Assembly (NCBI GenBank): GCA_048886185.1
Contig: JBHLKY010000015.1
Location: 60,001-92,000 of the forward strand
Origin: Candidatus Hermodarchaeota archaeon
GTDB lineage: Archaea > Asgardarchaeota > Heimdallarchaeia > Hodarchaeales > Hodarchaeaceae
Direction of reading: 5' to 3'
DNA length: 32,000 nt
Shown here: in pieces, positions 16,162-16,345 of the stretch
How the letters are laid out: each line of letters starts with the position of its first letter
Numbering within the stretch: position 1 is the first letter of the stretch
Made by a program: the position numbers and the translations under genes
The notes under the pieces: model-generated
The model's database searches: none
What the model saw: the letters and a program-made list of their open reading frames with translations, nothing else
What the model was told of the DNA's origin: nothing

Positions 16162-16345
16162 ACGTTTAGAAACGTGTGAGAAAACCCCAGACCACTGGGT
16201 AATCATACCTTCGCTGAATTCCCGATTCAGAATATATCAGCTAAATCCCTGACTTCTCAAGTGTCATTTAGTGTCATGGGTAATGCAATAGCTAAACAAA
16301 TGTGGGAGAAACAAGGCAAGCACTAGCCTGGGGAATCTACCCAAC
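16162..16345 (+). ncRNA. candidate structured 5' leader / ncRNA upstream of the secreted-protein gene
   Basis: GC-enriched relative to its flanks, with hairpins at 16162-16175, 16186-16199, 16214-16230 and 16241-16271. Long-range CCCCAG/CTGGGG pairing (16185-16190 with 16328-16333). Shares GCTGAATTCCCGATT with the flanking repeat. Confidence 0.45.

Follow-up and report, generated by a model that had tools for sequence, protein, structure and literature searches.

A 14-mer, CTGAATTCCCGATT, was found to be conserved in two non-coding contexts across three species of one archaeal genus, where it lies among short conserved blocks and behind similar promoter-like boxes, in segments with folding potential. 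The DNA analysed was a stretch of 32,000 nt from a Candidatus Hermodarchaeota archaeon (here called the window), together with the corresponding loci of related genomes. By these sequence comparisons, the 14-mer is a real, selected and lineage-restricted cis-element common to two non-coding units of one surface-protein island. Most likely, it serves as a shared regulatory recognition site in these two kinds of unit, and on the best reading, positions 16123-16363, upstream of a surface-protein gene pair, belong to one of two types of non-coding unit in this accessory island, each equipped with a promoter and paralogous to the other. Exact searching confirmed the three occurrences that a sequence-only reading of the window had pointed out, along with the 15-nt identity, including a leading G, between 15181-15195 (- strand) and 16213-16227 (+ strand). 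The copies are as follows:

9181-9194, + strand, copy 1 of the 14-mer, exact match
15181-15194, - strand, copy 2 of the 14-mer, exact match
16214-16227, + strand, copy 3 of the 14-mer, exact match

No further exact copy exists in the whole 4.84-Mb, 35%-GC assembly, for which the GC content (0.35) predicts a count of about 0.035, and at least three matches were obtained in none of 100 shuffles of the window. Copy 3 has only 15 nt in common with copies 1 and 2, and since the BLAST E value for a match of that length is 2 to 4 genome-wide, this copy could be due to chance when judged from one genome alone. Across 22 genomes of the genus, there are nine exact occurrences of the 14-mer and none of the reversed control pattern. 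Two other species of the genus, G010 and G019, carry exactly two copies each, one within a foldable element of about 110 nt adjoining the homologue of an S8 subtilase gene and the other upstream of a positional homologue of the gene o210, with the homologue of o528 then following. Because the same two contexts are kept in both species, the 14-mer is not a chance match. It is invariant in 7/7 copies from the three species, between which the neighbouring proteins are only 17-80% identical. Thus, we reasoned that the core is under strong selection, since it has been kept while the proteins beside it drifted far apart and the spacer became unalignable.

The motif is narrowly distributed. An exact-pattern search of 83 genomes of the class found the 14-mer pair in both contexts only in G010, G019 and the genome of the window itself (G000), and four singleton 14-mers elsewhere in the class were judged to be chance. 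Scanning of metagenomes with a 19-mer gave five matches, all unrelated and of 45-61% GC, and two scans of viral contigs gave no match. The distribution of the 14-mer tracks that of the o210-o528/S8 island. The initial proposal of a cis-regulatory motif family at secreted-protein genes therefore held in one respect, as the element is real and its linkage to a secreted protease and a surface protein is kept in three species, but the family is not genome-wide: it is restricted to one accessory island in three or four species, with 2-3 copies per genome, and to 3 of the 83 genomes of the class.

The island covers about 8.3-18.8 kb of the window and holds these genes:

8437-8769, + strand, TrmB/Lrs14-like wHTH pseudogene, with TGA and TAA stops within the wHTH domain and the N-terminal ~109 residues missing
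9787-14922, + strand, S8 subtilase of 1711 aa with CARDB and PKD-like repeats (Pfam PF00082, E = 4.5e-63)
16449-17069, + strand, o210, a fast-evolving 206-aa protein of no known family with an N-terminal hydrophobic signal or anchor
17192-18778, + strand, o528, a surface protein with a Heimdall-CTERM sorting signal (NCBIfam NF045529, 29 bits versus a cut-off of 24)

Identity between species amounts to 49-66% for the S8 protein and 48-67% for o528, and the positional homologues of o210 are 25% identical in G010 and 17% in G019. A protein search with o210 within the family yielded no relative at E <= 1e-5, the positional homologues being too diverged to detect. For o528, orthologues turned up solely in G010, in G019 and on one ENA contig; the matches in G014 and G002 are weak and partial, and a metagenome scan with the o528 protein returned no relative. 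The ENA contig (sample ERZ23498360, 7667 nt, holding P0005) represents a fourth locus, on which the S8 C-terminus is followed by a 472-nt spacer, a 208-aa gene and a 523-aa o528 homologue (62% identical). The island is present in three species and probably also on this fourth metagenomic contig.

Flanking the island on one side is the 3' end of a class-III aminotransferase gene (7016-8302), and on the other a decayed copy of that end. The last ~550 nt of the gene (7752-8298) are repeated 11,076 nt downstream at 18828-19374, with 72-78% identity in DNA and 66% in protein, and the same decayed fragment follows o528 in G010. The fragment pair resembles a scar such as an ancient insertion or segmental duplication would leave. 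The S8 gene is whole in the window. In the complete genome of G010, it is split into a 1104-aa N-terminal ORF (L017:8808-12122) and a 683-aa C-terminal ORF (L018:10576-12627) about 600 kb apart, the element staying with the N-terminal half and the leader, o210 and o528 with the C-terminal half; this split is a large rearrangement with its breakpoint within the gene. PKD-like domains near the S8 C-terminus are encoded by four tandem 276-nt repeats (13582-14709, 70-86% identical). Nothing in the assembly is less certain than the number of these repeats, since Logan contigs of all four source runs break there, the only place where the unitigs do; the source-run contigs are contiguous across 7000-13739 and 14508-20000 and support the arrangement of the window on both sides of the repeats, and no RNA run is listed as holding this DNA. 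Elsewhere in the window, two adjacent small ORFs at 20997-21320 and 21447-21773 (117 and 157 aa, neither of a known family) are 72-86% identical in DNA and form a diverged tandem duplication. ARAGORN detected no tRNA anywhere in the window.

The unit upstream of o210-o528 consists of five blocks, between which the sequence differs from species to species:

16123-16140, + strand, BRE/TATA-like box GTAGAAAGACTTATAAGT, a putative promoter, kept in G010 with one change and partly in G019
16164-16173, + strand, block 2, GTTTAGAAAC, at the predicted transcription start (~16162) and complementary to block 5
16213-16234, + strand, 22-nt box GCTGAATTCCCGATTCAGAATA, containing the 14-mer core and the perfect palindrome or hairpin CTGAAT-TCCCG-ATTCAG (6-5-6)
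16303-16313, + strand, block 4, TGGGAGAAACA, partly conserved and able to pair with UUCCCG of the core
16354-16363, + strand, block 5, GTTTTTAAAC, a T5 run (16355-16359) with the 3' strand of the closing helix, invariant in three species

Block 2 reads GTTTAAAAAC in G010 and G019, and its spacing from the promoter-like box is constant at 24-25 nt in the three species. The 22-mer is identical at 22/22 positions in G010 and 21/22 in G019, with unalignable flanks, and its palindrome, about 90 nt past the conserved BRE/TATA-like box, is perfect in all three leaders and occurs in this form nowhere else in the genome. When the S8-to-o210 spacers of G000 and G010 were compared by blastn, the 29-nt promoter-like box and the 22-mer were the main alignable stretches, beyond which only a few other short pieces aligned. 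The counterparts of block 4 are CGGGAGATGCA in G010 and CGAGAGAAACA in G019; this block can pair with the core, a predicted pairing that is weak in G019.

In the minimum-free-energy fold of each of the three species, blocks 2 and 5 pair as the closing helix, and the leader segment folds with z = -3.0, -2.2 and -2.5; the reverse strand of the leader also folds (z = -2.2). The only helices common to the three orthologous leaders are this closing helix and one hairpin of 6-7 bp. Transcription in Asgard archaea ends at U tracts without a hairpin, and the T5 run of block 5 is a candidate archaeal terminator or attenuator. The leader thus has a simple architecture of a closing helix, one invariant hairpin and a U tract, and it is not aptamer-like, since its interior is unconserved. 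Two further structures had been proposed for it. The GGTA...(A)TACC hairpin does precede the 14-mer in all three copies of the window but is absent from the orthologous regions of G010 and G019, and the elements of a CCCAG/CTGGG switch (CCCAG at 16186-16190, CTGGG at 16195-16199 and CTGGGG at 16328-16333) are likewise present here but missing from both relatives.

The distance to the gene agrees with the earlier estimate of about 280 nt, the ATG of o210 (16449) lying ~287 nt past the predicted start. A strong TATA-like box, TTATATAAAA, was also seen at 16381-16390, 59-68 nt upstream of this ATG, and an SD-like GGTGA stands 8 nt upstream of it. From these signals, o210 may have a proximal promoter of its own at 16381-16390, in which case the upstream unit could be a separate RNA of ~200 nt instead of a 5' UTR. 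The genome-wide TATA profile upstream of SD-anchored starts has only a weak peak, at -70 to -45, which could not decide which TATA box serves o210. Immediately before the 14-mer, the leaders of G010 and G019 (L021, L024) carry an ATG that opens the micro-ORFs MLNSRFRIR and MLNSRFRVQKY; in the window, TCG replaces this ATG, and only a 37-aa GTG-started ORF (16139-16252) spans the motif. MLNSRFR was considered as a coding reading and rejected, the ATG start being present in G010 and G019 with none in G000. Since every wobble position is invariant, the constraint on the 14-mer in the leader is probably not that of a leader peptide.

The second kind of unit is the S8-adjacent element, which occurs in two copies in G000 and one each in G010 and G019, always beside the S8 gene:

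9112-9299, + strand, element copy 1, with a promoter-like box (9112-9126), a stem, the 14-mer, a small 3' hairpin and a T5 run (9295-9299)
15018-15267, - strand, element copy 2, an inverted duplicate downstream of the S8 gene, with a promoter-like box (15250-15267) and the 14-mer (15181-15194)

The two copies form an inverted duplication of ~240 nt (9125-9362 versus 15018-15251, 74-89% complementary) that flanks the S8 subtilase gene. In copy 1, an 11-bp stem pairs 9147-9157 with 9193-9203, and its loop carries the 14-mer (9181-9194), mostly unpaired. The four element copies have in common AGGGGTAGCGRCCA, ATACCCYT, the 14-mer, TGGYCGCTT and a 3' part. Here the second half-site is imperfect, reading ATTATG or ATTCTG with 4-5 of 6 bases kept. 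The forward strand of the element folds at z = -3.0 versus -1.1 for the reverse strand. Among 15 pairs in the four copies, three are compensatory (A-U to G-C, U-A to G-C and U-A to C-G), a covariation score that 31 of 500 shuffles equalled; with four sequences, this covariation is only suggestive. The strand signals are mixed, since the mismatches A.C in G010 and C.A in G019 would become G.U pairs if the reverse strand were read. Neither copy 2 of G000 nor the G019 copy precedes a gene. The covariance model R1 of the element found only the four known copies in the 83 genomes of the class, its weak matches (E of 0.2-0.8) being judged chance, and genome BLAST with element and leader gave no further copies, only chance matches of 14-18 nt. 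A 26-aa ORF over element copy 1 was rejected as a gene on account of an unconserved start and stop and no bias toward synonymous changes.

Apart from the 14-mer, element and leader are connected by their promoter-like boxes. The leader box recurs in the elements 69-73 nt upstream of the 14-mer; the box of copy 2, GTAGAATGATCTTTAAGT, is three edits and that of the G010 element, GTAGAAAGGTCTTGTAGT, four edits away from it. In random 115-nt genome windows, a box within three edits was found in 0.05% and within four edits in 0.7%. This bears out the claim that the motif keeps the same orientation downstream of a TATA-like box, and the shared box gives elements and leader a common orientation. At the usual archaeal TATA-to-start distance, transcription is predicted to start at the base of the element stem (~9147) and, in the leader, at block 2 (~16162). 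Past the motif, 7/7 units have a T5-T6 run. In every element, CUGAAUUCC has a downstream pairing partner 58-68 nt away; in G019 this partner is a perfect 9-mer, GGAATTCAG, amid otherwise unalignable sequence, and in the other elements the pairing includes one G.U pair that is possible on the forward RNA only. Given the 14-mer and the similar promoter-like boxes in both, element and leader look like diverged paralogues of one promoter-plus-RNA unit, as far as their sequences tell.

On this basis, the 14-mer may quite possibly be an RNA-level recognition core common to a leader or small RNA and a second small RNA, a reading that we hold tentatively. In the scheme that we infer for transcription, its direction and start, the factor and its effect, transcription would start near 16162, ~26 nt past the centre of the TATA-like box, and would yield a structured RNA of ~200 nt closed by the helix GUUUAGAAAC/GUUUUUAAAC. 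The RNA would end at the T5 run (16355-16359) or continue through it into o210-o528, and the CUGAAU-UCCCG-AUUCAG hairpin would be its sole strongly conserved internal feature. A small RNA from the S8-adjacent element would show the same CUGAAUUCCCGAUU in its loop. Since both RNAs would present the same core, the invariant 14-mer would be the recognition core for one putative trans-acting factor, either an RNA-binding protein or a complementary RNA, that may couple the protease to the surface-protein operon in their expression, most plausibly via readthrough of the T run or RNA stability.

In bacteria, leader hairpins of the RAT/BglG-SacY and CsrA/CsrB types are bound by RNA-binding regulators before a terminator, and decoy small RNAs carry the same site. 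The units described here resemble such systems in having a short invariant hairpin near the start of a long leader, with a termination signal further on, and in repeating the motif, in sense orientation, in a second small RNA-like unit. They differ in the Asgard host, with its termination at U tracts that lack a hairpin, and in carrying one site per RNA. A full RNA control circuit of this sort, in which the factor sets readthrough of the U tract through the shared 14-nt motif of two paralogous units, or one RNA acts as decoy for the other, is doubtful as a specific proposal. The assignment of its parts, with unit 1 as the leader of the Heimdall-CTERM operon and unit 2 as a free-standing RNA beside the secreted S8 protease, is equally conjectural.

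The main rival to this reading is recognition of the motif as DNA. Here the 14-mer would be an operator bound by a sequence-specific regulator, for instance the TrmB/Lrs14-like wHTH protein, that co-controls two promoters; we regard this as possible, if rather unlikely. It is supported by the layout of the leader copy, a perfect CTGAAT-N5-ATTCAG palindrome that equals in its 6-N5-6 arrangement the TGM operator of TrmBL1/Tgr in Thermococcales, TATCAC-N5-GTGATA (PMC4158304). Both boxes are inverted repeats near archaeal promoters of functionally linked genes, and a TrmB-like wHTH gene adjoins one 14-mer copy in G010, where it is intact (219 aa; L017:13585-14244, minus strand) at the position equivalent to that of the pseudogene, between the aminotransferase gene and the element. 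The retention of 4-5 of 6 bases in the second half-site of the element fits an operator as well. Blocks 2 and 5 (GTTT-NN-AAAC) and the 22-mer are all palindromic as DNA, so that their complementarity by itself needs no RNA; block 2 at the predicted start occupies the classic position of an archaeal repressor site, and the similar promoter boxes suggest co-regulated initiation.

Several observations argue against such an operator. A cognate regulator of the TrmB type would be present wherever the site is kept, but the wHTH gene, intact in G010, is dead in G000, and in G019 none turned up next to the locus, on a contig that reaches ~600 nt past the leader 14-mer on its upstream side; the 14-mer is perfect in both G000 and G019. 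Each genome has paralogues of the wHTH gene at other places (on C51, C7 and C3 of G000, the one on C51 being closest to the G010 protein), and none of them adjoins S8-like or o528-like genes. The 14-mer box also departs from the TGM in its sequence, in its spacer, which is invariant in 7/7 copies and thus unusual for an N5, and in its 2-3 sites per genome with no regulon: with up to two mismatches, CTGAAT-N5-ATTCAG occurs 461 times versus 292+-120 in permuted controls, and a variable-spacer palindrome search showed neither enrichment nor a preference for a spacer of 5. Whereas the TGM lies over the transcription start or upstream of the BRE/TATA, the 14-mer box is predicted at +32 to +70, with sites at about +32 in the element and +52 in the leader that overlap neither BRE/TATA nor start and lie ~300 nt upstream of where the S8 promoter is likely to be. 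In the element stem, compensatory changes would be unexpected for protein-bound half-sites. The invariant spacer TCCCG is more in keeping with a loop or a contiguous strand being recognized than with a dimeric 6-N5-6 operator.

The element could alternatively be read on its other strand, giving a small RNA with AAUCGGGAAUUCAG that pairs with the o210 leader hairpin. Pairing would be perfect over 14-17 nt and would begin as a loop-loop contact, CGGGAA/UUCCCG, with both partners frozen by the need for compensation. The contiguous perfect identity of 14-17 nt between the contexts in each of the three species is what such a pair would require, and canonical reverse-strand TATA-like boxes lie beside the core in copy 1 (TTTAAATA) and G010 (TTTATATA), with reverse-strand T5-T8 runs just past the core in both G000 copies. 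The one-sided changes in G010 and G019 noted above, which are G.U pairs on the reverse strand, point the same way. We nevertheless consider an antisense pair improbable, since folding favours the forward strand, the promoter-like box that the element has in common with the leader faces the opposite way, and G010 and G019 have only weak T runs on the reverse strand, where a T9 run of G019 precedes the core. Furthermore, the target would lie ~220 nt upstream of the start codon.

It is more improbable still that the 14-15-bp identities are core sites of a recombinase or the decayed ends of a non-autonomous element, in which case sites 1 and 2 would invert the S8 gene and sites 2 and 3 the 1-kb AT-rich segment. 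The motif does have the shape of a core site, with inverted 6-mers about a 5-bp spacer, and the inverted copies around a gene with a short palindrome as core recall MITE/IS and fim/hin-type systems; the ~240-nt duplication flanking S8, the aminotransferase 3'-end copies bracketing the island and the variable gene order among G000, G010 and G019 are also in keeping with recombination. However, the window ORFs tested hold no recombinase, integrase or transposase domain, no target duplications were seen, and the genome has no other element copies, so the element is not a MITE or IS. The three genomes show only parental junctions, of element type and leader type, and no hybrids, and contigs of the four source runs, which drop rare variants, contain neither strand-changing joints nor an alternative orientation. 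The breakpoint of the G010 rearrangement lies inside the S8 gene and not at the motif, and the placement of the 14-mer is syntenic across species.

The upstream unit is not a riboswitch: the idea that the leader is a ligand-sensing aptamer, ydaO-related or of a new class, controlling o210-o528 draws on the length of the predicted 5' leader (~287 nt), on its significant folding energy and on a T5 run as possible attenuator, but is scarcely credible given that the leader interior is unconserved, a multi-helix aptamer core is absent from the three orthologous leaders, the proposed alternative pairings are unconserved and the same core sits in a different fold in the S8-adjacent element. The resemblance to c-di-AMP (ydaO/yuaA) aptamers rested on short strings in a long leader (ATACC..., TCCCG and CAGCTAA), of which those other than the core are unconserved in the orthologous leaders, and it found no support in covariance-model searches: RF00379 and all of Rfam gave no match at gathering scores over the whole window, and at E <= 10 over 8800-16800, RF00379 again gave none and the only matches were chance ones of snoRNA/miRNA type, none overlapping 16162-16345. 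The 14-mer box matches nothing in Rfam and is best classed either as a regulatory recognition box common to both units or as a small RNA/leader pair.

Asgard archaea are the closest prokaryotic relatives of eukaryotes, and to our knowledge, almost nothing is known about gene regulation and non-coding RNA in them. The reach of the motif is limited to three species, plus probably a fourth metagenomic contig, and to one accessory island. Within it, a sequence kept letter for letter in two non-coding contexts offers a concrete, testable handle in the form of a 22-nt probe and two candidate small RNAs. The RNA circuit, if true, would represent a kind of regulated attenuation or decoy system not described in archaea, and the motif could reveal how Asgard cells control secreted proteases and cell-surface proteins.
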